A DNA stretch of 64,000 bases from a virus. The notes beneath the pieces are model-generated. The model had not been told where the DNA came from, searched no databases, and worked only from the letters and a program-made list of their open reading frames with translations. Within the stretch, counting starts at the first letter, position 1; each line of letters opens with the position of its first letter. The translations under genes were made by a program, and so were the position numbers. The stretch spans positions 1-64,000 of IMG/VR virus record IMGVR_UViG_3300026097_000008, one strand, 5' to 3'. Positions 1 through 55,011 of this stretch are shown here, one piece after another.

Positions 1-13
1 TATATACTTCTAG

Positions 14-26
14 TAAGCTATTGATA
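14..26 (-). promoter_or_regulatory. IHF consensus site
   Basis: Reverse complement TATCAATAGCTTA matches WATCAANNNNTTR exactly. Near-matches at 51-63, 113-125 and 330-342. Confidence 0.65.
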
Positions 27-183
27 TTGTTGGAGTTCAAGTTCACACACTAAGCTATTGTTGTTTATGGTGATTTGTTCGAACTGTGTCGCGGGGTCTA
101 ATAGAGCTTATAGAACAATGACTTATGATGTGTTGTTGAGGCTGTGCGTGAGGTATAGCTTCTAACTGTGTGTGAGGGGCCGT

Positions 184-242
184 TGTGGATAACGTTATAC
201 ACAGTGTAGGTTGTGGATAAACTGTGGATAAACTGTGGATAA
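184..242. promoter_or_regulatory. Cluster of 5 DnaA boxes
   Basis: TGTGGATAA (reverse complement TTATCCACA) at 184-192, 212-220, 223-231 and 234-242, plus TTATACACA at 195-203. The last three have an 11-bp period. Confidence 0.9.
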
Positions 243-275
243 CTTTTGCGAGCGAGAAGAACGGACAAACGAACG

Positions 276-303
276 GGTGCGCATAAGACATATTATGTTA
301 AAT
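276..303 (+). other. dif: dif-like XerC/XerD recombination site
   Basis: GGTGCGCATAA-GACATA-TTATGTTAAAT. Both 11-bp arms are identical to E. coli dif; only the 6-bp core differs. Confidence 0.9.
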
Positions 304-351
304 GTGTGTGCGAGGATTTTCCTCAACGTTTTCAAACACTTAGCGGATTGC

Positions 352-399
352 ATTTAACATAATCCCGTGTGTGTGCGCATATAAGTTATTATGTTAAAT
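352..399. other. Second dif-like site (372-399) plus inverted XerD arm (352-362)
   Basis: TGTGCGCATAT-AAGTTA-TTATGTTAAAT (XerC arm 9/11, XerD arm 11/11). ATTTAACATAA at 352-362 is an exact inverted XerD arm. Confidence 0.75.
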
Positions 400-416
400 T
401 GGGGCGAGGGGGCCGC

Positions 417-429
417 TAAGTTGTTGATT
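417..429 (-). promoter_or_regulatory. IHF consensus site
   Basis: Reverse complement AATCAACAACTTA is an exact WATCAANNNNTTR. It lies in an imperfect inverted repeat, 315-346/413-444. Confidence 0.7.
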
Positions 430-567
430 TTGTTGAGGGAAATCGATTTATAACCTCTTGTTTTTGCTAGTGTTCTTTCTGTGCCGTTTGTGCATTTTTT
501 AGTTGACAGCAGCACAAACTTGTAGTATAGTGTATATACAAGCTTAAACAATATAGAGGGCACTACT

Positions 568-828
568 ATGCAAACACAAACATACACAAACGCTGTTGCA
601 ACTGTTATTGCGTTTTACGCAAAGCAAATTGCAAACGCAAGCTACGACAGCGTAGCGGAAGCTAACGACTACAGCATAACAGACAACTGCGAAAAAATAC
701 AGTACTTGCTTGCGGAAAGTGCGCAACACACTACTGTGCAAAGTTTAGCAGTTGCCGCGCTTAACAGTGCAGCGGATACAGTAGTACGCGAGTGCATGTA
801 TACACAATTGCAAGCGCAAATTAATTAA
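568..828 (+). CDS. Early hypothetical protein (86 aa)
   Basis: Own promoter; GAGGGC at 556; ATG. Confidence 0.8.
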   Translation: MQTQTYTNAVATVIAFYAKQIANASYDSVAEANDYSITDNCEKIQYLLAESAQHTTVQSLAVAALNSAADTVVRECMYTQLQAQIN

Positions 829-901
829 AAAACACTTGACAACTGCGTGTACATATGCTATAGTGTATGTACACGTTAACAATAGCAAAGAGGGCAAACT
901 T

Positions 902-1078
902 ATGCTAAACAAACTTAGTACGCTTAAAGTTAAAAACGGACGCTATGCGCGAATGCAAGTAATTCGCATTTTGGATAATGCTGTACAGTATAGTGCGCTG
1001 TTTATTAAAAACGACGGCTATACAGAAAAGCGCATTTGCACTGTGCGTAATAACACTGTAGTAGCTTGGCAAAGTTAA
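902..1078 (+). CDS. Early hypothetical protein (58 aa)
   Basis: Promoter at 836; GAGGGC at 890. Start moved to ATG 902. Confidence 0.75.
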   Translation: MLNKLSTLKVKNGRYARMQVIRILDNAVQYSALFIKNDGYTEKRICTVRNNTVVAWQS

Positions 1079-1166
1079 CAAATTAATAGTAAAATACAAT
1101 TGTACATTGTAGCATGTGTGTGCTATAGTATACACGTACACTAACAAATAGCAAAGAGGGCTATAT

Positions 1167-1367
1167 ATGCAAAACACACAAACACTGCTACAACAGTATA
1201 ACAGCACCCGCCGTTTTTTACTTACGCTAAACGAAGCGCAACTGCATTTATTAATAGCTGCATTAGATGACAACAACTGCTTGCAAATAACACAAGCACA
1301 AGTGGACAGCGCATACGACGCAATAGACGAACGCACACGCATGCAATATGCACAACACACAAAATAA
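1167..1367 (+). CDS. Early hypothetical protein (66 aa)
   Basis: Promoter at 1101; GAGGGC at 1156. Confidence 0.8.
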   Translation: MQNTQTLLQQYNSTRRFLLTLNEAQLHLLIAALDDNNCLQITQAQVDSAYDAIDERTRMQYAQHTK

Positions 1368-1450
1368 TTTAAAAAACGGTTGACAGCACAGCAAACTTGT
1401 GCTATAGTATACACATACACTAAACAAACAATTGCAATAGAGGGCAAACT

Positions 1451-1588
1451 ATGCAAAAGCTTTTAAACAAAATTACTTTTTACTTTTTGCAACGTGCGTA
1501 TGCGCAAATGGAAGCAACGGGCGACTTGCAAAACGCAGACGACGTTGCGGAGCACGTAGAAGATTATTTTACATATTTTGTAAAATAA
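1451..1588 (+). CDS. Early hypothetical protein (45 aa, not in ORF track)
   Basis: Promoter at 1380; GAGGGC at 1440; MQKLLNKITF...YFVK*. Confidence 0.75.
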   Translation: MQKLLNKITFYFLQRAYAQMEATGDLQNADDVAEHVEDYFTYFVK

Positions 1589-1663
1589 CACTTGACATGT
1601 GTGTGTACTTGTGCTATAGTATACACACACTAAACAAACAATTGCAAAAATAGAGGGCTATAT

Positions 1664-2005
1664 ATGCAAACAATTAATGATACTACATACGTGCAAGCAC
1701 ATGATGCTGCAAACTTAATTACGTTTTTAGCTACAGAATTAGCTATGTATACAGCACGTGTAAAATACACACACGAAACTATTAATAGTATGTGTGTTAA
1801 ACAATTGTGTGATAATATTGATTTTTTAAACTGTGTATATAACGATTGTGTTAATAACACACAGCAACACGAAATGTTTAGTGTAATTGCTGTGTTATTT
1901 GCAGATGGTTATGCAGATGATATTTTAAACAATAATATATTTGACACGTTTAAAGAATTTTGTGCTATTAATAATTTTGAATATGACGAATACAAATATT
2001 TTTAA
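1664..2005 (+). CDS. Early acidic hypothetical protein (113 aa)
   Basis: Promoter at 1592; GAGGGC at 1653. Confidence 0.8.
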   Translation: MQTINDTTYVQAHDAANLITFLATELAMYTARVKYTHETINSMCVKQLCDNIDFLNCVYNDCVNNTQQHEMFSVIAVLFADGYADDILNNNIFDTFKEFCAINNFEYDEYKYF

Positions 2006-2098
2006 ACACTGTATAAATTAACAGTTGACAAGTGTGTGTATGTGTGCTACAATGTACACATACACTAAACAAACAATTGCAAAAATAGAGGGCTATAT

Positions 2099-2293
2099 AT
2101 GCAAAACAAGTACGCTACGCTTAAAGCACAACTGCTTGCAGTAATTGAAGCAGCAGATGATGCATACGATTTGACTGACGTAGATGAATATGCAGATGCA
2201 AGCAACGAATATGCGCTTGTGCTTGAAGAGATTGTGCAACTGTACGAAGCTGCTGATTTTGATACACAAAGCATTGTGCAAAACGCACTGTAA
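2099..2293 (+). CDS. Early highly acidic protein (64 aa)
   Basis: Promoter at 2025; GAGGGC at 2088; D/E-rich. Confidence 0.8.
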   Translation: MQNKYATLKAQLLAVIEAADDAYDLTDVDEYADASNEYALVLEEIVQLYEAADFDTQSIVQNAL

Positions 2294-2371
2294 AAAATAA
2301 CACTTGACATGTGTGTGCGTGTGTGCTATAGTATACACGTACACTACGCAAACAGCAATAGAGGGCAAACT

Positions 2372-2839
2372 ATGTACACATTTGCAAACACACTGCTTAC
2401 TAAACTTGCGGCATGCGAGCATGTTAACGTTGAACAGCGCGACAGCGAAGAATACGTTGTGACAGTAGACTTAGGCGGCGGCTATGCTGACAAGGACTGG
2501 GAAGGCGGCTACTGGGCTGACACAGTGCGCATTACGGACGAAACGCTAGAATTGCAGTTTAGCGTATTTGGTGGAGACAGCAACTGGAACGCTGACGATG
2601 ACTGCGATTACTGCATAGGCGAAGGCTACGTACACATGCACTACGCAGACTATGGCGAAGGCAACTTAGCATACACAAGTGCATTAGAAGATGCGATTAA
2701 CGATGCTATACAAACACGCACAAATGGCATACTGTATGCAGACGGAAGCGAGCAGGGCATGCAAGGCTACGACAGCGCAGACGAGTGCTATTTAAGTTTA
2801 GACATTGAAGAGTGGTACGAGGAGACTGTGCAAGCATAA
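2372..2839 (+). CDS. Early highly acidic protein (155 aa), possible DNA mimic
   Basis: Promoter at 2304; GAGGGC at 2361; start ATG 2372. Very D/E/Y-rich with few K/R. Confidence 0.8.
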   Translation: MYTFANTLLTKLAACEHVNVEQRDSEEYVVTVDLGGGYADKDWEGGYWADTVRITDETLELQFSVFGGDSNWNADDDCDYCIGEGYVHMHYADYGEGNLAYTSALEDAINDAIQTRTNGILYADGSEQGMQGYDSADECYLSLDIEEWYEETVQA

Positions 2840-2934
2840 AAATAAATTGCACTGCTGTTAAAAAAACACTTGACAGCAGTGCAAACTTGTGCTATAGTGT
2901 AAACATAAACTTAAACAAGCGAGAGGGCTACGCC

Positions 2935-3252
2935 ATGTTTTACGTATACGAGAAAGCAACCACTTATATTATCGGCAAGCAGGGCACACCGGATCATCGT
3001 GCTAGCTACAAGACAATGGCTGCGGCTAAGGCAGCACTCACACGCATTGCAAAGGCGAGTGGCTTAATGCCCGTGGATGAGAACTATCCCCTCTACACAC
3101 TAGGCATTGCAGAAGCTGCCTACTTCCACAAGTCGATTGAAAAGCAAGTCAAGCGAAAGGTGCTTGAGGGCTTTGGCGGCAAGGAATATTACGAACCCAT
3201 CAACACTCCCAACTACTGCTCGCCCAGCTCAGAAAGTTATTGGTCGATGTAA
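2935..3252 (+). CDS. Early hypothetical protein
   Basis: Promoter at 2870; GAGGGC at 2923; ends TPNYCSPSSESYWSM. Confidence 0.85.
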   Translation: MFYVYEKATTYIIGKQGTPDHRASYKTMAAAKAALTRIAKASGLMPVDENYPLYTLGIAEAAYFHKSIEKQVKRKVLEGFGGKEYYEPINTPNYCSPSSESYWSM

Positions 3253-3321
3253 AAAGAGGTTGACAGCGTAGCCGTTTGAGGCTATACTGTATATAACAGT
3301 TAGGCAAACGGAGGGCAATCC

Positions 3322-3564
3322 ATGCAAAACACATTTATAACAGACTACGGTATGTTTACTAGCGCAGGCAACTGTGCTGTGGACGAAATCGTTCGCGAAG
3401 CACGTGAGCTGGCAGGTGTAGACGGGCCAGTTAACCCTGTACAACAGGCCATCAACTACATGCTCAACGAACTGGAGTACCTAGGCAAGGAACACTTCGA
3501 AGAAGCAGAGGACACCGCGGTACGTGAAGCCGCACTGGCAGAGTTCTTCGCAGAGGAGGATTAA
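3322..3564 (+). CDS. Early acidic hypothetical protein
   Basis: Promoter at 3260; GAGGGC at 3311. Confidence 0.85.
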   Translation: MQNTFITDYGMFTSAGNCAVDEIVREARELAGVDGPVNPVQQAINYMLNELEYLGKEHFEEAEDTAVREAALAEFFAEED

Positions 3565-3638
3565 AAAGAGGTTGACAGGGTAGCACTTCGGTGCTACACT
3601 GTATATACAGTTAAGCAATAGCAAAGAGGGTAAACGCT

Positions 3639-3914
3639 ATGAACACAGTCCAAACAGCAATCAACGCAATCCGCAACATGAACAACGATGAGCTGAACCA
3701 GATTATCGAAGCGGTCAAACTCCAACGCACATACCTAGCACGTTCGACAGCAAAGGCTTTGGCTGTTGGTGACACTGTGCAATTTACAGGACGCGGTGGC
3801 AATACAGTGACTGGTACGGTCACAAAGATCAATCGCAAGACAGTGGTAGTAGACGAAGGCTTCACACGCTGGAAGGTGCCAGCTAGCCTGCTGTCTTTAA
3901 CGGAGACTGCATAA
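3639..3914 (+). CDS. Early protein with SH3/KOW-like beta C-terminus
   Basis: LAVGDTVQF...GTVTKINRKTVVV...WKVP pattern; promoter at 3572. Confidence 0.75.
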   Translation: MNTVQTAINAIRNMNNDELNQIIEAVKLQRTYLARSTAKALAVGDTVQFTGRGGNTVTGTVTKINRKTVVVDEGFTRWKVPASLLSLTETA

Positions 3915-4033
3915 TGTATGAAGTCCTACTAAATGGCAAGAGGGTTGCGCTATGCAACTCTCTCCAACTTGCAGAAAGCTATGTTCGATCAACCCCGGGT
4001 GCTACAGTCGTAGGCCCCGCTGCTAGGAGATAA
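3914..4033 (+). CDS. Small hypothetical protein (39 aa)
   Basis: TAATG overlap with upstream gene; GGAG upstream. Confidence 0.5.
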   Translation: MYEVLLNGKRVALCNSLQLAESYVRSTPGATVVGPAARR

Positions 4034-4036
4034 GAT

Positions 4037-4612
4037 ATGCCCAACTGGTGCTACAACAATCTAGACATTACCGCAAAGACACCTGAGCAGATGGAGATGC
4101 TTGATCGTGTGAGCAAGGCAGAAGCCGCGGATGGTTTCATCAGTATGTTCCTTCCGCTGCCTGAGGCACTCAAGGAAACTACAAGCCCTGCACCACAGCC
4201 AGGGCAAGCCAACTACAAAGGCGAACAGCCAGTGGTGGACGGTTTCGACAACTGGTATGACTGGCAAGTGGCCAAGTGGGGAACCAAGTGGGATCCAGAA
4301 GTCATGGACTGTGATTACGATGGCGAAACTCTTACTGTATCGTTCGACTCAGCTTGGGCACCGCCCATTGCGTTCTACGAGTGGTTAGTAGAACAAGGCT
4401 ACGAAGTAAGTGCCAACTACTACGAGCCAGGTATGGACTACGCTGGGGAGTGGGTCAACGGCGATGACTTTATGCTAGAGAATGTGAGCGACCTTGCTCG
4501 CCAGACTGAGGAGTCACTGTCCACTCGCGAGTATGACATCCTCGAGATGTTTGGCATCTTTGAAGAGGTTGCTCAATACGACGAAGAAGAAATGTTAGAC
4601 GACGGTGCATAA
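4037..4612 (+). CDS. YubB/DUF1281-family ferredoxin-like protein
   Basis: MPNWCxN, WYDW...WGTKWD, FDSAWAPP and YYEPG motifs; AGGAG RBS. Confidence 0.8.
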   Translation: MPNWCYNNLDITAKTPEQMEMLDRVSKAEAADGFISMFLPLPEALKETTSPAPQPGQANYKGEQPVVDGFDNWYDWQVAKWGTKWDPEVMDCDYDGETLTVSFDSAWAPPIAFYEWLVEQGYEVSANYYEPGMDYAGEWVNGDDFMLENVSDLARQTEESLSTREYDILEMFGIFEEVAQYDEEEMLDDGA

Positions 4613-4671
4613 AACGGTTGACAAACTGGGCTCTCCTTGCTATACTGTATTCATAGTGAGGAGGGCATCCA

Positions 4672-4809
4672 ATGAAGCAGTCAAAGATCAAAGTTCGCAA
4701 CAAGGCGTTTGGCCAAGCTCGTTCAGAAGGACGACTAGCCGCTCGCGTGGAGCGTGACCGCACCAAGTACCATCGCAAAGAAAAACACAAAAACCGGTTG
4801 ACAGCCTAG
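4672..4809 (+). CDS. Small basic protein, ArfA-like (45 aa, not in ORF track)
   Basis: Promoter at 4618; GAGGGC at 4661; RVERDRTKYHRKEKH. Confidence 0.65.
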   Translation: MKQSKIKVRNKAFGQARSEGRLAARVERDRTKYHRKEKHKNRLTA

Positions 4810-4857
4810 GCACTAGGTGCTATACTTTATATAACAGTTAGGGCATTGGAGGGCAAG

Positions 4858-5145
4858 ATGGCTTATTACACTTACACTAAAGATCCAATCGGGTGCTTCG
4901 TTGAGAAGGACACCGGCAACTATTTCGAATATAGTGACATCGGCGACGATCCTATGATGTACGAAGAAAACGGTGGCTTCACTCACAAGGTATGGGTAGG
5001 CGGCGGTGGCGTATGCGGCGACCAAGGATATCGCTATGCCGTGGTTATGAAGACAGTGGCCCTCATCTGTGTGGATGAAGATGACGAAGGACTTCCGGTA
5101 GTAGAGAAGTGGTACTTGAAAAAGAACACGGAGTATGCGGTATGA
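4858..5145 (+). CDS. Early hypothetical protein
   Basis: Promoter at 4798; GAGGGC at 4849; start ATG 4858. Confidence 0.8.
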   Translation: MAYYTYTKDPIGCFVEKDTGNYFEYSDIGDDPMMYEENGGFTHKVWVGGGGVCGDQGYRYAVVMKTVALICVDEDDEGLPVVEKWYLKKNTEYAV

Positions 5146-5351
5146 GCTTGCAATGTCTTACAGAGACCACAGAGGATCTACTGCCTCACACCTATCTAGT
5201 AGACGAAAAGCGAGGCAAGATGTTGGCCTACCGCAAGAGCTCAGGTGAGATTGATGTCTTCTCCAAGCCACTCTCCTTTGGAAAGAAATACAGAAAGTTC
5301 AAAAAAGTGGTTGACAACGAACTGGTTCGAGCATATACTGTATACAGTTAA
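5142..5351 (+). CDS. Hypothetical protein
   Basis: ATGA overlap; GGAG RBS. Confidence 0.7.
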   Translation: MSLQCLTETTEDLLPHTYLVDEKRGKMLAYRKSSGEIDVFSKPLSFGKKYRKFKKVVDNELVRAYTVYS

Positions 5352-5375
5352 ACAATAAAGCAGAGGGCTTACAAA

Positions 5376-5852
5376 ATGGGTACACGTTCAGCAATTGGTT
5401 ACAAGACTCCAGAAGGCAAGATCCGTGCAAAGTACTGCCACTATGATGGCTACGTTGCACACAACGGACGCATCCTGCAGGAGCACTACCAAGCCGCATA
5501 CAAGATCGCACAGTTGGTAGAACTAGGCGACATGAGCACACTTGACGCAGAGATTGGTGTACAAGTAGACTTTGACGATCGTGACGCACACGAAGGACAG
5601 TGTGTGTTCTATGCTCGCGACAGAGGCGAGACAGGTACAGATGCACAAGAGTTTGACACTGTGCAGGAGTTTGTTGACTACTATGCGTCAGCAGGATGCG
5701 AATACTTCTACTTGCACACAGCCGCAGGTTGGATTGTACATGACCGCTACAATGTAGGCAAAGACTCGTTTGGCTACCCTGTGTTTGACGACTTGGAGAC
5801 TTGTGTGGCGCTTGAAGTGTCACGCCTCAAAGCACAAGGCTACGATATCTAA
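5376..5852 (+). CDS. Conserved phage early protein (MGTRS...YCHYDGY type)
   Basis: Promoter at 5311; GAGGGC at 5364; motif common in phage hypothetical proteins. Confidence 0.85.
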   Translation: MGTRSAIGYKTPEGKIRAKYCHYDGYVAHNGRILQEHYQAAYKIAQLVELGDMSTLDAEIGVQVDFDDRDAHEGQCVFYARDRGETGTDAQEFDTVQEFVDYYASAGCEYFYLHTAAGWIVHDRYNVGKDSFGYPVFDDLETCVALEVSRLKAQGYDI

Positions 5853-5916
5853 AAAGAGGTTGACAGTCCTACGGGGCTGTCATATACTTAATGTAAGAGG
5901 AGTAAATAAGTTTCAA

Positions 5917-5993
5917 GCGCCTGTAGCTCAATTGGTTAGAGCGTCGGACTCATAATCCGGGGGTTGGGGGTTCAAGTCCCTCCGGGCGCACCA
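5917..5993 (+). tRNA. tRNA with CAT anticodon, probably Ile2 (else elongator Met)
   Basis: Cloverleaf; TCGGA-CT-CAT-AA-TCCGG; encoded CCA; paired 1-72; C4-G69/C5-G68 as in TilS substrates. Confidence 0.9.
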
Positions 5994-5997
5994 TATA

Positions 5998-6074
<77 letters not shown>

Positions 6075-6179
6075 AACAACGACAGCGCACCTTAGCAATG
6101 GCGATGAGCTAGGAGATCAAACTGCGACTGTCAGGCTCTGGGACTATTAATAGACTTGCCTGGGGTCGCGCAATCCATT

Positions 6180-6266
6180 GCTCGCGTGGTGGAATTGGTA
6201 GACACAAGGGACTTAAAATCCCTCGCCCCAAAAGGCATGCCGGTTCGAGTCCGGCCGCGAGTACCA
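6180..6266 (+). tRNA. tRNA-Leu(TAA)
   Basis: AGGGA-CT-TAA-AA-TCCCT; long variable arm; GTTCGAGT; CCA. Confidence 0.95.
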
Positions 6267-6269
6267 AGT

Positions 6270-6330
6270 TTGCGGAAGTTGATCTCAGAATGTGCCCTCG
6301 TTCTTAGTAGATCCTTCCGCAATATTTTTT
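6270..6330 (+). ncRNA. Hairpin/terminator displaying GCCCUC in its loop
   Basis: TTGCGGAAG/CTTCCGCAA, GATCT/AGATC and AGAA/TTCT stems; loop TGTGCCCTCG; T-tract follows. Confidence 0.7.
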
Positions 6331-6409
6331 GAAAAAAATGGTTGACAAACCTGGGCATTGGTGGTATACTGTATATAACAGTTAGGAAATAGACATTAGA
6401 GGGCACACT

Positions 6410-6808
6410 ATGTCAATCACACTTCTTCAACACATTGAGTCACTTAACGCACAAGCTGATCTGCTCATGGAGCAGGAGCCAGGCTTGTGGATGAGCAAGT
6501 ACACGGACGACATGAGCCATTGGGCAGACATGGGTGTGTACACTGTGGAGGACTTCAAGCGTAGTCAGTTGATCAATGGTATCTCAGATGCATCAAAGGA
6601 CCTCTACGGTTGCCGCATGCGCCTTGCGTGGGATGAGATGAGCATTGAGCAGATGGAGTCTACATACGAGAACATCTGTGCTCAGTTGAACGCACAGTAT
6701 GAAGAGGAGAAGGCTGCGGCTGAGTGGGAAGCAGAGTGTAAGCGTGGATTGCCAGATGACTGTAAGCCACTGCCCTACGAAGACTACGCATACCTGGAGG
6801 AGGTGTAA
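6410..6808 (+). CDS. Early hypothetical protein
   Basis: Promoter at 6342; GAGGGC at 6399. Confidence 0.85.
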   Translation: MSITLLQHIESLNAQADLLMEQEPGLWMSKYTDDMSHWADMGVYTVEDFKRSQLINGISDASKDLYGCRMRLAWDEMSIEQMESTYENICAQLNAQYEEEKAAAEWEAECKRGLPDDCKPLPYEDYAYLEEV

Positions 6809-6809
6809 G

Positions 6810-6887
6810 ATGGAACTGCTGATCGCATTCACACCCGCACTGGTCATCTTCGTTCCTATGGCGATTGCAATCATGCTTCGCCCGTAA
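6810..6887 (+). CDS. Small membrane peptide (25 aa)
   Basis: GGAGGAGG RBS; MELLIAFTPALVIFVPMAIAIMLRP. Confidence 0.6.
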   Translation: MELLIAFTPALVIFVPMAIAIMLRP

Positions 6888-6959
6888 TTAGGGGTTGACA
6901 AACGATCATTTAGATCATATACTGTATAGACAATGAAGCAAACGATGAGGGCAAACATC

Positions 6960-7118
6960 ATGACAGACTACAGAGATTTCGCAATTGAGTTGGTTGAGGA
7001 TATGGGCTACTCCGCAGAGGATATGCTCACAGCCGCGCTGAAGTATATGAGCCAATCCGACGTTGAAGATATGCTTCGCGTCAACGAGTATCCACAACCT
7101 TGTGAGGAGGAAGTGTAA
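6960..7118 (+). CDS. Small acidic early protein
   Basis: Promoter at 6895; GAGGGC at 6947; start ATG 6960. Confidence 0.75.
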   Translation: MTDYRDFAIELVEDMGYSAEDMLTAALKYMSQSDVEDMLRVNEYPQPCEEEV

Positions 7119-7333
7119 TGGAATACTTCACCACAGTCCGCGCAGAGGTGTATATCACCCTGCGAAGCGAGCGTCCATTGGACCGAGAAGAAGTTCACAC
7201 AGTGCTGAGCGAGATGCACTACGAATTCGGAGACGATGAAGGCTACGGCCTCGACGACGGCGAGAGCACTCACATCTGTGCTACACGCTGGGAAGATAAT
7301 GAAATTACTCATATGAATCGGGAGGACGCATAA
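7118..7333 (+). CDS. Hypothetical protein
   Basis: TAATG coupling; GAGGAGG RBS. Confidence 0.75.
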   Translation: MEYFTTVRAEVYITLRSERPLDREEVHTVLSEMHYEFGDDEGYGLDDGESTHICATRWEDNEITHMNREDA

Positions 7334-7494
7334 TGTTCCAGCAATACTTTGTATACTACGATGGCCGGTTCGCTGGCACTGTGATGGCACTGTCAGAGTC
7401 TAGTGCAAAGGACAAAGGCTGTCAACTCGCAGGTGTAAGCGCAAGTGCATACACTGGTAAGGCTCGAAGATTAGTTGAAGTTGTTCGCAGATAA
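7333..7494 (+). CDS. Hypothetical protein (53 aa, not in ORF track)
   Basis: TAATG coupling; GGAGG RBS. Confidence 0.65.
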   Translation: MFQQYFVYYDGRFAGTVMALSESSAKDKGCQLAGVSASAYTGKARRLVEVVRR

Positions 7495-7556
7495 TGGTTG
7501 ACAAACTTGGATAAGACTGTATACTATTATTAATAGTTAGGACAAACGAGGGCGAT

Positions 7557-8558
7557 ATGCAAAACATTAAAATCACAGAAGGGTACTACAAGATTCGAGG
7601 CAAAGACACATCAGTGGCTGGACTTGTGTTTCCCCTAGTAGAAGAATTTAAAGTAGGCAACAAAGGCGGCTATGTCACAGTAGACGGCCGAGCAATTGCA
7701 GGCTTCCCAGACCGTAATATCAAAATCAGTTGCGGTGGCCCGGAGGACTACGAGCTTGTTGGTGCAGACGTATCAGTCAGCCAGCGAGAAGAGACAGACG
7801 AAGAGATCATTGAGCGCCTGCGAGAGCGTTTCGACATGCTAAAGGAAATGACCAAAGCTGTCAAGAAAGGCGATGTGCGAGCGATGATTGTTTCGGGTCC
7901 TCCGGGCGTAGGTAAGAGTCACGGCGTAGAAGAAGTGCTAGACCGCTACAAGATGATGGAGACACTTGGCGGCACCAAGAAGTACGAAGTCGTCAAAGGT
8001 GCTATGAGCCCGATCGGATTGTACGTAAAGCTTTTCAAATATGCAGACAAAGACAATGTATTGGTGTTCGACGACTGTGATTCAATCTTCGACGAGCCGC
8101 TTGCTCTTAATATTTTAAAAGCTGCGCTTGATAGCAAGAAGACACGTACCATTCACTGGAACACAGATTCATTCAAGTTGCGCAACGAAGGAGTGCCAGA
8201 CAGTTTCAAGTTCGAAGGTAGCTGTATCTTTATTACCAACCTGAAGTTTGATAACGTTAAGAGCAAGAAACTACGTGATCACCTTTCAGCACTAGAGAGC
8301 CGTTGTCACTATATGGATCTTACCATTGACACAGAGCACGAGAAGATGCTCAGAATCAAACAGGTGATCCGCGACGGTATGCTAGATACATATGAGTTCG
8401 ATGAAGAACTCAACGAAGAGATTATCGACTTTGTCGATATAAACAAGAAGCGACTGCGTGAGCTGTCATTAAGAACAGTACTTAAGGTCGCCGACTTGGC
8501 CAAAGCTTTTCCCAGCAATTGGGAGGCGATGGCTGAAAACACTGTGATGTCGCGTTAA
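7557..8558 (+). CDS. AAA+ ATPase
   Basis: Walker A GPPGVGKS, Walker B VLVFDDCD, sensor-1 IFITN, ALESR; promoter at 7498; GAGGGC at 7548. Confidence 0.9.
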   Translation: MQNIKITEGYYKIRGKDTSVAGLVFPLVEEFKVGNKGGYVTVDGRAIAGFPDRNIKISCGGPEDYELVGADVSVSQREETDEEIIERLRERFDMLKEMTKAVKKGDVRAMIVSGPPGVGKSHGVEEVLDRYKMMETLGGTKKYEVVKGAMSPIGLYVKLFKYADKDNVLVFDDCDSIFDEPLALNILKAALDSKKTRTIHWNTDSFKLRNEGVPDSFKFEGSCIFITNLKFDNVKSKKLRDHLSALESRCHYMDLTIDTEHEKMLRIKQVIRDGMLDTYEFDEELNEEIIDFVDINKKRLRELSLRTVLKVADLAKAFPSNWEAMAENTVMSR

Positions 8559-8713
8559 TGCCCTCGACGCTATCACAGTTAATAGATATGATTATTGAGC
8601 AACAGCCCTCACTGCTCTGATCATATCACAAGGTGTCAGATGCAAGCCCTCACGCTCTGCACCGCTCTAGCCCTAGCAGGATGTGCCCTCGTCCAATGCT
8701 AGGGCTTTTTTTT
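8541..8713 (+). ncRNA. Four-hairpin candidate sRNA/3'UTR with GCCCUC loops, ending in an intrinsic terminator
   Basis: GCCCTC at 8560, 8605, 8646 and 8685, each at the apex of a different stem. The last stem, AGCCCTAGCA/TGCTAGGGCT, is followed by a T-run. Confidence 0.8.
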
Positions 8714-8788
8714 GATCTTTTCGGTTGACAGCACTGCTGAGTGGTGCTATAGTATATGTATAGTTAGAACAAACGGAGGGCAATCCAA

Positions 8789-9010
8789 ATGTCAACAGAA
8801 CTTAGAAATGTACCAGGATGTGTAGCACAGAATGAATTGCGTCAGACTCGCTTCTGGGGTGGCAAGAATCGTCAGACCTGTGTACAAGTCACAAACCGCA
8901 ATGGTGAGTTCCTGCAACTGGACAAGTTCCAAGCTCGTGCATTGGCTGTAGAGTTGATGCTGTTCGCAGAAGGTCGTGAAGTTGAAGAATTCGAAATGGA
9001 GGAAGTGTAA
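8789..9010 (+). CDS. Early hypothetical protein
   Basis: Promoter at 8725; GAGGGC at 8776. Confidence 0.8.
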   Translation: MSTELRNVPGCVAQNELRQTRFWGGKNRQTCVQVTNRNGEFLQLDKFQARALAVELMLFAEGREVEEFEMEEV

Positions 9011-9156
9011 TGGACCTTTGGGATCGAGTGATTGAGCAACTGCGCAAAGACATTGAAGAGGGCGAAGTGATGCCCATGTACGAAATGCTTCAGCAGGTGC
9101 CCAAGGATGTGTTGATCGCATACTTGCCGGAAGAGGAAGCAGCAGATGTTGGATGA
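9010..9156 (+). CDS. Small acidic hypothetical protein (48 aa)
   Basis: TAATG coupling; GGAGG RBS. Confidence 0.6.
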   Translation: MDLWDRVIEQLRKDIEEGEVMPMYEMLQQVPKDVLIAYLPEEEAADVG

Positions 9157-9247
9157 TCCATGTGATGATTGGTCGCAATTAGGGGTTGACAAAGCACACA
9201 AGTGATGGTATACTGTATATAACAGTTAGGGCAAAGAGGGAATACAA

Positions 9248-9427
9248 ATGCATATCAACGACATCTACGCATTGCGCACAGAGTTAGCCAAAGTATTATG
9301 CAACGAATCTGTGGACCGCACAGCCATCCGTGCATTGTTAAGTGCCGCACAAGAAGAGATCACAGAGTTCGAGAAGTACATGGAACAACGAGCACTTGAA
9401 GAAGAAGCACGGGAGTACGCAGAATGA
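9248..9427 (+). CDS. Hypothetical protein (59 aa)
   Basis: Promoter at 9186; GAGGGA upstream. Confidence 0.7.
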   Translation: MHINDIYALRTELAKVLCNESVDRTAIRALLSAAQEEITEFEKYMEQRALEEEAREYAE

Positions 9428-9534
9428 CACAGTACAACGAGAAGGCAGTAGACGAGGCAATCAAACGTGATCCTCGTATCAAAGGCAAAGAAGCCAAGCT
9501 GATCAAAGCACTATTGAAAGGTCGCAAACAATGA
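9424..9534 (+). CDS. Small basic protein (36 aa)
   Basis: ATGA overlaps at both ends; GGAG RBS. Confidence 0.6.
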   Translation: MTQYNEKAVDEAIKRDPRIKGKEAKLIKALLKGRKQ

Positions 9535-9806
9535 ACCAAACATATTTTGAAGCAACCCCGCAACAGAAGAAGCTGGCAGACATCGGACGAGCCATGATGG
9601 ACTTCTCCGAAGAGTACGGTAAGATCCACGGATTGAAAGCTGTCACAGACGACGGCCTGCGCACTCTCAACAACCTCAGCCAAGTAGGCTATATGCTGAC
9701 CACAGTTGGGGCTACCTTTGGTAAAAACTCTAAGAGCTTCTCAGAGGACGAGAAGAAATTAATTGCAGATTTCATTAACAAAAAGGTTGACATCGAGCGC
9801 AAGTGA
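9531..9806 (+). CDS. Hypothetical protein
   Basis: ORF coupled to the upstream gene. Confidence 0.75.
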   Translation: MNQTYFEATPQQKKLADIGRAMMDFSEEYGKIHGLKAVTDDGLRTLNNLSQVGYMLTTVGATFGKNSKSFSEDEKKLIADFINKKVDIERK

Positions 9807-9847
9807 TGGTATACTGTATATAACAGTTAGGGCAAAGGGCAAATACT

Positions 9848-10090
9848 ATGAAGCGCGATACACTGATCAAAAACCTAAACTCCAAGTTTAACCTTAACGC
9901 TGTTCCTTCAGAAGAGTGGGACGGTGCTGAAGGCGGCATTTGGATCCGCGACAACATCTGCAAGCCGGAAACAGACTACTACCCATATGCGGATGGCACT
10001 ATGCAGGACAACAAGTTGAATCGCTACTTGCGCAAGGCGGGTTGGTTTGCTGAGCCGTACGACAGCGAAACAATAATGATTTGGAAATAA
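9848..10090 (+). CDS. Early hypothetical protein
   Basis: Promoter at 9787; AGGGC occurs twice in the leader. Confidence 0.8.
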   Translation: MKRDTLIKNLNSKFNLNAVPSEEWDGAEGGIWIRDNICKPETDYYPYADGTMQDNKLNRYLRKAGWFAEPYDSETIMIWK

Positions 10091-10156
10091 GAGGTTGACA
10101 AGTGCCAAGGATGGCACTATACTTTATTAAACAGTTAAGCAAAAGAGGGCAAACTA

Positions 10157-10429
10157 ATGCGCACACTTAAAAACTTCATACAAGACAACAACCGCTGGAT
10201 GGCACTGTTCGGCAAGGCGGACATGACTTTCCCACTTACACAATCAGATGTAGATGACTTAGCACGTACACTAGACGCCAAGCTATCACCTGAGAACCTA
10301 CACTGCGATGGAGAGATCACTGTAGCAGAAGCCAATCGCAAGTACAACCGTTTGGCAACAACCTATCGCGAGCTGTGTGAGTACTGCGACTCAAAAGGCT
10401 TGCGTGAACCAACTGTATACGAACTCTAA
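10157..10429 (+). CDS. Early hypothetical protein (LSPENLHCDGE motif)
   Basis: Promoter at 10095; GAGGGC at 10145. Confidence 0.85.
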   Translation: MRTLKNFIQDNNRWMALFGKADMTFPLTQSDVDDLARTLDAKLSPENLHCDGEITVAEANRKYNRLATTYRELCEYCDSKGLREPTVYEL

Positions 10430-10498
10430 GAGGTTGACAAACAGTCAGCTTGAGCATATACTGTATAGACAATGAAGCAAACACAGAGGGCAAACTGT

Positions 10499-10840
10499 AT
10501 GAACATTCAAGAACTTAAGAACATCCTAGTTGAAGCACAGAACGCGGCAACAGCCAAGAGCATGGAAATGTATACTCAACACGGCGACGGTTGGGCATGT
10601 GGCTTTGCTTGGGTAAACATCTACAAGCATGAAGGCAAAGCAATCAAAGGCAACACCAAGCTGGGCAAGCTGCTCAAGCAAGCGGGTGTGCGTCAAGACT
10701 ACACACGAGCATTCCAGGTGTGGGGTGGTGAGTGGTACAACGGACAGAGCATTGACATCAAGGAAGCTGGTGCTAGGGCTTATGCAGATGTGCTCAAGCG
10801 TTATGGCTTCGAAGCTTACGCAGGCAGCAGACTAGACTAA
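10499..10840 (+). CDS. Conserved phage protein (CGFAWV motif)
   Basis: Promoter at 10434; GAGGGC at 10486; start ATG 10499. Confidence 0.85.
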   Translation: MNIQELKNILVEAQNAATAKSMEMYTQHGDGWACGFAWVNIYKHEGKAIKGNTKLGKLLKQAGVRQDYTRAFQVWGGEWYNGQSIDIKEAGARAYADVLKRYGFEAYAGSRLD

Positions 10841-10863
10841 CTGTTAAGCAACACTTAATAGTT

Positions 10864-10944
10864 GAGAGGTAGTCAAATGATTTGGCTACCTTTTTTATGC
10901 ACAACACACAGTCAAAAAAAAGCACAGCCCAAATGCTGTGCTTG
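10864..10944. terminator. Convergent intrinsic terminators
   Basis: AGGTAGTCAAA/TTTGGCTACCT plus T-run on +. A-run followed by AAGCACAGC/GCTGTGCTT for the - strand. Confidence 0.75.
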
Positions 10945-10961
10945 TATGTTAGTAGCGTATG

Positions 10962-11135
10962 CTACACGTCAAAGTTTAACAGTACTGCTTCCTCATCATA
11001 TGTGTAGTGTTCCGCATTGTACAGTTCAAGTTCTTTTGCGTTATAGTGCGAGAACGCAATAACGGGCAAGTGCTGTGGTAGTGCTTGTAGTTGTGCTACT
11101 AGTTGCGCTACTGTTAGTTGCTGTTGCTGTTGCAT
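10962..11135 (-). CDS. Early hypothetical protein (57 aa), convergent with the main early array
   Basis: Minus-strand promoter TTGACT-N17-TATTAT (11195-11167); GGAG RBS; MQQQQQLTVAQL. Confidence 0.75.
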   Translation of the reverse strand: MQQQQQLTVAQLVAQLQALPQHLPVIAFSHYNAKELELYNAEHYTYDEEAVLLNFDV

Positions 11136-11469
11136 ATGTGCTACTCCGTTTTGTTTACTGTTTATATATAATAGCACAACACACTAAAAAGTCAATCAAA
11201 ATTATTTTGAAAAAATTCTCAATGAAATCAATGGGGTCGGAGGTATAATTAGAAAATTTCTGAGGGGGTCGGCGTATACTATTGTTTTTGCTACAGTTTT
11301 TAGTTGCGCTTAATGATCTCCTTCTCTTCTCCCTTTTCTACCTTTCTACACACTACACAAAAATGGGGTGAGTGCAAATCACCACCTCACTTCTGTAAGT
11401 ACTTCACCTAAAAAAACTGCGCAGCAAATTTTTTACCCTGCAGGACCCATTTCGGGCTATAAGTACTGT

Positions 11470-11544
11470 ATGGAACCTTTATCTGCAATTGGTATAGTAT
11501 TCTTCACGGCTATAGTACTTGTACTACTAGGAGTGTTTGATTAA
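11470..11544 (+). CDS. Small hydrophobic peptide (24 aa)
   Basis: TATAAGTA-ctgt-ATG; MEPLSAIGIVFFTAIVLVLLGVFD. Confidence 0.45.
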   Translation: MEPLSAIGIVFFTAIVLVLLGVFD

Positions 11545-11773
11545 CCTCACTCACAGCGAACGCGAACTCTACACGAATACGAGCTAGCGAGTAAGAGTGT
11601 GTGAGTAGCGTGAGATGTCAGACGTAGCCATACGGCTGCTAAATACTCTTAGTACACACAGTGCTATGCACGGCAGTTTGAACATATGTCATACTTGCTA
11701 GTTGTTTATAGCTAGATAAGCTCAGCAGACTAGCCGCTGGCACTGTGTGTATGTTCAACTAGAGTATTCTTAT

Positions 11774-11989
11774 ATGTACACAGTCAAACTCATATACGAT
11801 CCAGAACCATACACTACTACGCTTAAAGAGTCAATCACATACTGTGCTACCATAGAACTATTTCTCAAAGGTATACACACAGTACAAGCAAGTGCTACAC
11901 GCATAGTGTTTGAGAGTGATCGTGACCGTATGCTAGGCTTGATATACTTGTCAGAGTCAACCAGCTTTACAGCAGTATGCATAGACTAG
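11774..11989 (+). CDS. Hypothetical protein
   Basis: ORF only; start uncertain. Confidence 0.45.
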   Translation: MYTVKLIYDPEPYTTTLKESITYCATIELFLKGIHTVQASATRIVFESDRDRMLGLIYLSESTSFTAVCID

Positions 11990-12258
11990 TACACGGTGAG
12001 ACTGTGTGTCAAAAGACTCATCTTTTAGTCGATCAGCATTTGCGGGGTGTTTTAGGGCTATAAAAACAGTCTGTCGTTATGGTTGAGACATTTTAGATTT
12101 TAAGTGTGCGCACAGTATCGTTGTACTGGAGAGCTGTTAAGTGCGTAGTTTAAGAGGGTAAAATTTTTGCTAAAATCTAGCTTCGCTAGCTGCTTCGCAG
12201 CTCTAGGCTTTTGCGCTGACCGCTGTGCGGCTTTTCTGGCGCGGACGCTTCGCGCTTG

Positions 12259-54600: not shown

Positions 54601-55011
54601 AAACCAATAAGTTCCTGCTGTTGGATTTGACGCTGGTTCTGTAGCACTTGGCTCTAGCTCGCCTAAATCGATGTCAGCCCTTACAACGTAGGCTCTGTTG
54701 CTTACGCCTAATAGTGAATAAGCAGCTTGTAAGCCATATTCATTTAATTCGCTACCATTAATTGGATTATTATTTGCGTCTACTTGGAATAATGGGTCTC
54801 CAAATGTGTCTGCTAAATCTCTTTGCGATGTAAGCAAATAAGGTGTGCCTGCATTAGCTGCTAGCGTCCCTTGTGCTGTTCCTGTGCCTGCTGCATTTGA
54901 TTTGTTTGAAGCAGTGGCAACAAAAATCATTGGTACGGTACCTGGTTCTGCTGGGGTATAGAACGACTCGTCTATTACGCTAACCTGTACTCCTGGTGAT
55001 GTCAATGCCAT
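51667..55011 (-). CDS. Tail sheath protein (gp18-like), extended
   Basis: SPGVQV, PWFAPAGTRRG, RDTLY..NINP, FGQKT, RINVARL, FEPND; start ATG 55011. Confidence 0.96.
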   Translation of the reverse strand: MALTSPGVQVSVIDESFYTPAEPGTVPMIFVATASNKSNAAGTGTAQGTLAANAGTPYLLTSQRDLADTFGDPLFQVDANNNPINGSELNEYGLQAAYSLLGVSNRAYVVRADIDLGELEPSATEPASNPTAGTYWFDTADSIYGIFEWNGEGINTTGGQTFSTQTPTVITDTADVVDYAGADYTPKASIGAVGSYAVVAVTSLNKLWYKNTGGTWVEVGGDDWTKSWPTIKGTAANPTATGADAGNIEINGSSISVTTGDTVSVIATAINDALITGVTAEAVDGYLEIYSDGTGSAALDSSASGDILIGGTAATLTLVGITAGTYFPPAVQISAHTSVPAWKTTDTSLGQPSGFSARPTGSVWFKTTTPNRGANLSVKLWNAETLLWDSQSAPLYGTSAAAIYGLDPTGGGANLSVGDIYAKTNVADDTQPLVTFSLYRRSNIGATNIASNPITSAAPGAGTNQFSISATDDGSAAYSTPYTVTVVTTGSASADATAIAAGINAANITNVSASVDASNRIVISHSLGGEIKLTDTDGLLAAIGYQAKDAAVDESQWTANLYYQDGTTSATSPKQLIASNWNNLTYTASPNEVTSLAADGQLWYSSVVDEVDIMVHDGTSWKGYQNEYADADPEGPIVAASMPTAQSDGTPLVTGDIWIDTSDLENYPTIYVYNATLSGTTAQKWGTPIDKSDQTTENGILFADARYGDTGGSATTAPDATIAELLVSDYLDPDAPDPALYPKGMLLWNLRRSGFNVKRFERNYINLNADNARNGDEDMGSYYPHRWVTESGNQADGSGSFGRKAQRKVVVQALQATVNSNDDIRDDESRLFNLMATPGYPELIGEMISLNFDRGLTAFIVGDSPLRLTPDATSLNEWATNVNAAVEDNDDGLVSRDEYLGVFYPAGFTSDNFGNNVVVPASHMMLRTIALSDQVSFPWFAPAGTRRGGITNASSTGYLNSEGEFVAVALNEGQRDTLYQNNINPITFISGAGLVAFGQKTRARGASALDRINVARLVIYLRSQLNQLAKPYIFEPNDKITRDEIKQAAESLLLELVGQRALYDYLVVCDESNNTPSRIDRNELYLDIAIEPVKAVEFIYIPLRLKNTGEIAGL

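Follow-up and report, generated by a model that had tools for sequence, protein, structure and literature searches.

The early region of an uncultured T4-type virus (IMG/VR record IMGVR_UViG_3300026097_000008) carries an unusual ribosome-binding site (RBS), GAGGGC, before the promoter-proximal gene at almost all early promoters, and the complement of this hexamer is found in the loops of a small set of hairpins encoded in the same region. The record is 154,976 bp long with a G+C content of 38.5%, and its first 64 kb, hereafter the window, were analysed together with the remainder of the record and with related loci. The data strongly suggest pairing between the leader hexamer (the tag) and the hairpin loops (the anti-tags), and it is probable, judging from sequence comparison, that GAGGGC combines a Shine-Dalgarno (SD) core with a lineage-private address, which the anti-tag RNA loops would occlude, thereby damping or shutting off early translation.

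In the window, GAGGGC occurs 28 times on both strands taken together, as compared with 11.1 ± 3.3 times in shuffled sequences, none of which reached 28. On the + strand of the whole record, 20 of its 21 copies fall within 556-10491; 18 of these are leader tags and two, at 3166 and 9058, are inside coding sequence. The early region (503-10,900) is one-directional and its genes are short, many of them coupled by TAATG/ATGA overlaps. Exact GAGGGC is present at the first gene after 18 of the 21 protein-driving early promoters, and the other three have the near variants GAGGGT (3626), GAGGGA (9236) and AAGGGC (9835), the last of which is the only tag without the GAGG core (20/21). The leader that follows promoter 5860, which drives tRNA-Met, tRNA-Arg and tRNA-Leu, has no tag. 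The positions of the tags, their number with the three variants and the lack of a tag after the tRNA promoter had been put forward in an original prediction made from the letters alone, and all were reproduced with a single correction, the tag placed at 5364 starting at 5363. No tag was found at the nine internal early genes, and none within 22 nt upstream of the 121 other gene starts of the record, a crude set (first ATG of the longest open reading frame, ORF) that misplaces some starts, such as that of the sheath gene, and serves only to assess the absence of the tag elsewhere. The sole look-alike outside the early region, at 87079 on the - strand, sits within a longer ORF and was discarded.

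The A of AGGG is found 8-12 nt before the ATG and the -10 box 15-35 nt before the tag, so that the start codon, rather than the promoter, sets the position of the tag, which points to a function in translation. Each of the six tag positions holds 1.7-2.0 bits of information, as compared with at most 0.77 bits at any of the 46 flanking positions scored (-30 to +21); part of the tag information is forced by anchoring the leaders on AGGG, but this does not apply to the G (20/21) and C (19/21) on either side of it. Conservation of the tag extends over at least three unrelated sequence classes of leaders, among which clear duplicates are also found (1380/1592/2025 and also 6895/10434). The tag thus greatly exceeds the surrounding leader sequence in conservation, and plain duplication of promoter cassettes, the alternative raised with the original prediction, is contradicted.

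The complement GCCCUC is found in the loops of five strong hairpins, all in the early region, and in no other strong hairpin of the 155 kb. Hairpins 1-4 (8541-8714) form the 3' untranslated region (UTR) of the gene for an NrdC.11-like AAA ATPase, and this array has a predicted fold of -67.5 kcal/mol with a z-score of -6.6; the fifth hairpin, in the tRNA trailer, has a z-score of -4.8. Hairpins 4 and 5 are both terminators and have AUGUGCCCUCGU in common, but next to the loop they differ by a compensatory replacement of G-C by A-U. Further copies of GCCCTC, at 5059, 42380, 43482, 84571, 87074 and 135870, lie outside hairpin loops and were set aside. The predicted duplexes between first-gene leaders and their cognate loops have a mean energy of -14.4 kcal/mol, as opposed to -7.2 kcal/mol for the same leaders with the canonical anti-SD and -7.3 kcal/mol with loops of the second type described below (B-type). 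For comparison, the corresponding predictions are -9.2 kcal/mol for internal early genes and -6.2 kcal/mol for other genes. An Rfam cmscan of window positions 1-12000 with E-values up to 1 returned the three tRNAs and two chance matches only, with no family on the array.

Three IMG/VR scans with the ATPase protein yielded about 200 related loci, at nearly all of which the tag corresponds to the loop; co-variation was counted over unique arrays with at least four leaders. The state described above (state A), with the tag GAGGGC and the loop (U)GCCCUC(A), is found in 50 unique arrays. State B combines the tag GGAGCGA(A) with the loop AUUCGCUCC (CGCUCC) in 20 unique arrays, in addition to locus L092 and dozens more loci. 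State C, from locus L112, has the tag GGAGCAA in 26 of 29 leaders and three AUUGCUCC (UGCUCC) loops, and one compensatory substitution separates it from state B, the tag G being replaced by A and the loop C by U. A sub-variant of state A (L041/42) pairs the tag AAGGGCA with a GCCCUU terminator loop, and in state D, from locus L168, CACACUA is placed just 5' of the SD and its complement UAGUGUG is repeated in the loops. Each switch involves 10-25 leaders and 2-5 loops.

The loops are fixed and the stems that present them are variable: 108 A-type loops are found on 89 different 5' stems, with 2-5 hairpins per array in the relatives. Of the 275 unique occurrences of the UGCCCU hexaloop, 46 have a closing stem of at least 4 bp, nine times the 1.8% obtained for permuted hexamers, and pairs 3-5 of the UGCCCU hairpin stem alternate between A-U, G-C, U-A and C-G. 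Similarly, the tRNA-trailer hairpin recurs at about 16 loci of the A clade with unrelated stems. The association of the tag with early promoters also holds in the relatives, since 349 of 408 sites with an A-type tag and an ORF are within 75 nt of the promoter pattern, as opposed to 41 of 239 sites with a canonical SD and an ORF.

We also investigated how the tag relates to ordinary ribosome sites. The tag holds a purine stretch that matches the CCUCC core at a normal start-codon distance, but pairing with the anti-SD does not account for its conserved G and C. In the standard 16S tail (...CACCUCCUUA) the partners that follow GAGG are U and G (GGAGGUG), so that the G and C of the tag face A and C. 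The coupled downstream genes at 4037, 6810, 7118, 7333 and 9010, and also those at 3914, 5142 and 9424, use AGGAG, GGAGGAGGTG, GAGGAGGAAGTG, GGGAGG and similar sites; GGAGGAGGTG, the SD of gene 6810, has a canonical extension beyond the core. The true start of the sheath gene is an ATG near 55010 on the - strand, preceded by the SD AGGAG, and no SD precedes the tube gene, whose ATG comes directly after ATAAATATTTGT. Because the untagged genes of the same phage extend canonically (GGAGGTG, AGGAG), the anti-SD of the host is almost certainly normal, and a host anti-SD containing GCCCUC appears very unlikely since the untagged SDs are canonical and sister lineages use three other extensions. The earlier statement that coupled downstream genes and late genes have ordinary SDs holds for the coupled genes and the sheath gene but fails for the tube gene. 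The companion proposal, which reads the trailing GC as a regulatory address, gains support from the five complementary loops and the joint switching but has to be widened, because the predicted duplex spans (U)GAGGGC(A) and not the GC alone.

Taken together, these results are consistent with the following mechanism. Host RNA polymerase would fire all early promoters, and GAGG, as an ordinary short SD core at a normal distance from the ATG, would recruit ribosomes. The extension GC(A), unpaired with the canonical 16S tail, would complete a match of 6-8 nt to (U)GCCCUC(A). Two of the three early terminators, read from the same early promoters, would yield structured 3' ends with anti-tag loops, and as these 3' ends accumulate their loops would pair with the SD and its extension more strongly than the anti-SD does, excluding the 30S subunit; it is the overlap of the address with the ribosome site that would make the pairing repressive. 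Untagged downstream cistrons could be silenced through translational coupling at the TAATG/ATGA junctions, and untagged middle, late and host mRNAs would be spared. We infer in this way that the pairing takes place in vivo, that it represses and that it provides timing of or feedback on early protein synthesis, and the same applies to any choice between action in trans and in cis. It is possible, although we put this forward tentatively, that these aquatic jumbo phages run a lineage-private translation code for their early genes, in which concerted rewriting of the tags has taken place on at least three occasions, and that the tags act both as a global early-translation switch and as a specificity determinant towards co-infecting relatives. 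If so, related co-infecting phages would neither cross-regulate nor escape each other's shut-off, and the tags and loops would represent a natural, evolvable and orthogonal RBS/antisense system for an entire class of genes.

Several observations weigh against this mechanism or limit the support for it. The five loops would face 21 leaders with consensus promoters, and this stoichiometry is not obviously sufficient. In predicted ensembles the tag has no extra accessibility, its probability of being unpaired being 0.59 as compared with 0.63 for the remaining leader bases, a result that is neutral for the model. The ATPase tree groups the state A loci in one monophyletic clade and gives states C and D as one lineage each, so the independent switches number roughly 2-4 only, and the co-variation, strong for each event, comes from few events. 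Loci L093, L095 and L096 are hybrids, with GAGGGC as well as GGAGCG/GGAGCA leaders, whereas the loops that follow the ATPase gene in the available sequence are all GCCCUC/GCCCUU; recombination of tag lineages may account for them, or a second array may be present beyond the sequenced DNA. The sole mismatch between tags and loops, locus L080, combines mostly GGAGCA tags with CGCUCC loops. The PAC2 locus of the PA5oct group contains the ATPase gene, and promoter cassettes, tag and hairpin array are all absent from it. Finally, a single metatranscriptome run contained a share (6%) of the sampled words, and it gave contigs of relatives (85-95%) and foreign tRNAs, and nothing on the array or the transcript ends.

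The pairing could be real and serve another purpose, such as superinfection or co-infection exclusion resembling P1/P7 heteroimmunity, tuning in cis between the 5' and 3' UTRs as in icaR, or protection or activation of the mRNA, and we regard this as unlikely but worth consideration. Private, lineage-specific tags are what an immunity determinant would be expected to look like, the ATPase mRNA holds tag and array together, and with three clear early terminators, two of them bearing anti-tag loops, most early transcripts would carry a tag as well as an anti-tag. Activation is hard to square with pairing on the SD; cis and trans action, or shut-off and exclusion, are not separated by the present evidence. 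A protein reader of the SD and its 3' extension, either a RegB-like endonuclease or a RegA-like repressor, with the loops unrelated or secondary, seems improbable, although proteins that read early-specific SD extensions do exist in T4-type phages (T4 RegB/RegA; PMC3014915). A GAGGGC-binding protein would not recognize the complement, and this reading leaves unexplained both the complement in hairpin loops and the joint switching in four states. The tag motif GAGGGC[A/T]A differs from the RegB site GG*AGRAYARAA. A search with the RegA and RegB (PF10715) Pfam families gave no match in the 155 kb (about 44% of the genome) and likewise none in the control genomes, which makes it uninformative.

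At the DNA level, GAGGGC and GCCCTC are the same site in double-stranded DNA, and all copies are in the early region, so that a DNA-binding protein recognizing either orientation could act as a roadblock or regulator at early promoters and terminators. We consider this highly improbable, because the distance is fixed to the ATG instead of the promoter, the leader copies all have one orientation and the array copies all the other, and the array copies are always at the apex of hairpins with co-varying stems. It is scarcely credible that the tag is an ordinary SD variant copied with duplicated promoter cassettes, with chance matches in the loops; some leaders are clearly duplicated (the two groups given above) and GAGG alone is workable as an SD, but the low information content of the flanks as compared with the tag across unrelated leader classes does not fit such an origin. 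Moreover, we estimate a chance of roughly 1e-3 for a given 6-mer to occur at least twice in about 200 nt, and the matching complement is found in every lineage. The protein, DNA-site and cassette-duplication explanations are all weakened because the complementary motif at co-varying apices and the joint switch remain unexplained by them, and occlusion of a tagged SD by anti-tag loops is the interpretation that we retain. The coordinates of the tags, hairpins and promoters are given in Table 1.

Table 1. Promoters, leader tags and anti-tag hairpins of the early region.
Feature	Position	Strand	Remarks
22 near-consensus sigma70-type promoters (TTGACA-N16/17-TATA[C/G]T)	503..10462	+	21 protein-driving, 1 tRNA
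GAGGGC tag	556..561	+	ATG 568
GAGGGC tag	890..895	+	ATG 902
GAGGGC tag	1156..1161	+	ATG 1167; promoter -35 weak (TGTACA)
GAGGGC tag	1440..1445	+	ATG 1451
GAGGGC tag	1653..1658	+	ATG 1664
GAGGGC tag	2088..2093	+	ATG 2099
GAGGGC tag	2361..2366	+	ATG 2372
GAGGGC tag	2923..2928	+	ATG 2935
GAGGGC tag (GGAGGGC)	3311..3316	+	ATG 3322
Variant tag GAGGGT	3626..3631	+	ATG 3639
GAGGGC tag (GGAGGGC)	4661..4666	+	ATG 4672
GAGGGC tag	4849..4854	+	ATG 4858; extra AGGGCA upstream in leader
GAGGGC tag	5363..5368	+	ATG 5376
Terminator hairpin (anti-tag loop 5)	6270..6330	+	3 nt after tRNA-Leu; hexaloop UGCCCU within AUGUGCCCUCGU, then T-run
GAGGGC tag (GAGGGCAC)	6399..6404	+	ATG 6410
GAGGGC tag	6947..6952	+	ATG 6960
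GAGGGC tag, NrdC.11-like AAA ATPase gene	7548..7553	+	ATG 7557; anti-tag array at the 3' end of its mRNA
Anti-tag hairpin 1	8541..8579	+	loop AAUGCCCUC; ATPase stop codon (8556-8558) in stem
Anti-tag hairpin 2	8585..8627	+	loop ACAGCCCUCAC
Anti-tag hairpin 3	8632..8663	+	loop AAGCCCUCAC
Anti-tag hairpin 4, intrinsic terminator	8669..8714	+	hexaloop UGCCCU within AUGUGCCCUCGU, then T8
GAGGGC tag (GGAGGGC)	8776..8781	+	ATG 8789
Variant tag GAGGGA	9236..9241	+	ATG 9248; AGGGCA upstream in leader
Variant tag AAGGGC	9835..9840	+	ATG 9848; AGGGCA upstream in leader
GAGGGC tag	10145..10150	+	ATG 10157
GAGGGC tag	10486..10491	+	ATG 10499

The CheckV completeness of the 154,976-bp record is about 44%, and related contigs reach 350-400 kb. 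T4-type core genes on the record include those for the sheath, tube, terminase, DnaB-like helicase and the ATPase, and the nearest cultured relatives are Pseudomonas jumbo phages of the PA5oct group, with a terminase identity of 54%. A megablast of positions 7000-12000 against the phage collection returned no cultured close DNA relative. The psbA gene, looked for as a clue to the host, was not found in the 155-kb record, which represents about 44% of the genome.

Of the 22 promoters, 20 match the consensus at 11 of 12 positions, that at 3572 at 10 and that at 1101 at 9. The cassettes form two blocks that differ in make-up yet carry the identical tag: the first seven (500-2500) have 34-39% G+C, TATAGT -10 boxes and leaders of the ACACTAAACAAACAATTGCAA type, and the later ones (2500-10900) have 45-50% G+C, TATACT boxes and GTATATAACAGTTAGG-type leaders. 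The clear + strand terminators of the early region are three only. Those at 6330 and 8714 have anti-tag loops, and no such loop is present in that at about 10860-10900 (GGTAGTCAAATGATTTGGCTACC followed by a T-run). Between most promoters and the next cassette there is no terminator, and long read-through transcripts would thus join several tags with an anti-tag 3' end. A run of DnaA-box-like TGTGGATAA(C/A) repeats is found at 186-250, upstream of the first early promoter, and the 105-nt spacer between tRNA-Arg and tRNA-Leu (6075-6179), for which no tRNA was called, may be a small RNA or a degenerate tRNA. At three - strand starts (29374, 18489 and 41286), which belong to middle-type genes of 416, 327 and 356 aa, respectively, TTGACA-N17-TATAAT (or TATATA) ends 5-7 nt before the ATG, and these genes look leaderless; the SD is also absent from many other non-early genes.

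In three leaders (4798-4860, 9186-9250 and 9787-9850) AGGGCA occurs a second time, 5-12 nt ahead of the tag (TTAGGGCAAAGAGGG...), and 13 of the 20 leaders of locus L090 start with CATAGGGCAAAC; a leader with two sites could bind two array loops simultaneously. The GAGGGC at 9058 is internal to a gene (9010-9156) and has in-frame ATGs downstream of it, at 9070 and 9076 (GAGGGCGAAGTGATGCCCATG, 9058-9078); it could mark an internal tagged start or be due to chance. In the state D locus, the DNA after the ATPase gene (L168:2926-3290) contains four or more UAGUGUG elements and one B-type terminator loop, and the leaders have a common ACACACUAGG just 5' of variable SDs, placing the address upstream and not downstream of the SD.

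To our knowledge, the shut-off of early proteins in large lytic phages is understood in detail only for T4, where RegB and RegA are responsible, and a literature search covering the motif, phage small RNAs (sRNAs) acting on early SDs and PA5oct returned no description of such a tag/anti-tag system. If confirmed, it would represent a regulon under post-transcriptional control by the 3'UTR and terminator loops of the phage itself, it would explain the odd early-gene RBSs of many uncultured T4-like phages and it would provide orthogonal tag/anti-tag pairs ready for synthetic biology. It resembles the known systems compared below but is a member of none of them. The c4 antisense RNA of phages P1 and P7, reportedly described by Citron and Schuster in 1990 (a reference listed in PMC2864571), is phage-encoded and presents exposed segments that pair with the RBS region of a phage mRNA; matched changes in the RNA and its target set the two phages apart in specificity. 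The RNA segments described here are likewise complementary to a phage RBS and show lineage-matched changes in four states, but the resemblance is functional only, since the c4 covariance model (RF01695) gave no match in window positions 1-12000. Moreover, c4 controls one operon (icd-ant) in the immunity of temperate phages, whereas here about 20 leaders of a T4-type lytic jumbo phage are involved.

T4 RegB cuts early SDs at the consensus given above, and the initiation regions of about 30 early mRNAs are the sites of repression by RegA (PMC3014915). As in T4, early mRNAs are here singled out at the SD or initiation region, and the RegB site also consists of an SD with a 3' extension; however, the reader is a protein in T4, whereas the evidence here points to RNA. 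In the icaR mRNA of S. aureus, the 3'UTR sequence UCCCCUG pairs with the SD of the same mRNA, which prevents initiation and generates a substrate for RNase III (PMC3868564). The ATPase mRNA similarly has both the tag and the anti-tags, although icaR is a single mRNA regulated in cis and here five loops would face many tagged leaders, in pairs that co-vary across lineages. RNAIII of S. aureus and other sRNAs with UCCC loops use C-rich loops that pair with the G-rich RBSs of several mRNAs in a multivalent manner and arrest translation (PMC2837412). Their targets are ordinary strong SDs and specificity comes from additional contacts, whereas here it apparently resides in a short SD extension common to about 20 leaders, and RNAIII has no sequence or structural homology with the array. 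The cuckoo RNAs of Alphaproteobacteria (CcsR / alpha-r14 / NfeR1) have 2-4 adjacent hairpins with one C-rich, anti-SD-like motif repeated in every loop and highly variable stems (PMC4615179), and the ATPase 3'UTR array, with its four adjacent hairpins, repeated loop motif and variable stems, is similar in layout. The loops differ, being (U)GCCCUC(A), AUUCGCUCC or AUUGCUCC here and CCUCCUCCC in the cuckoo RNAs. The latter are sRNAs encoded on bacterial chromosomes, with host mRNAs as their targets, whereas here a 3'UTR with its terminator and a tRNA trailer would act on the leaders of the phage itself, and the target is a private tag that switches between lineages.

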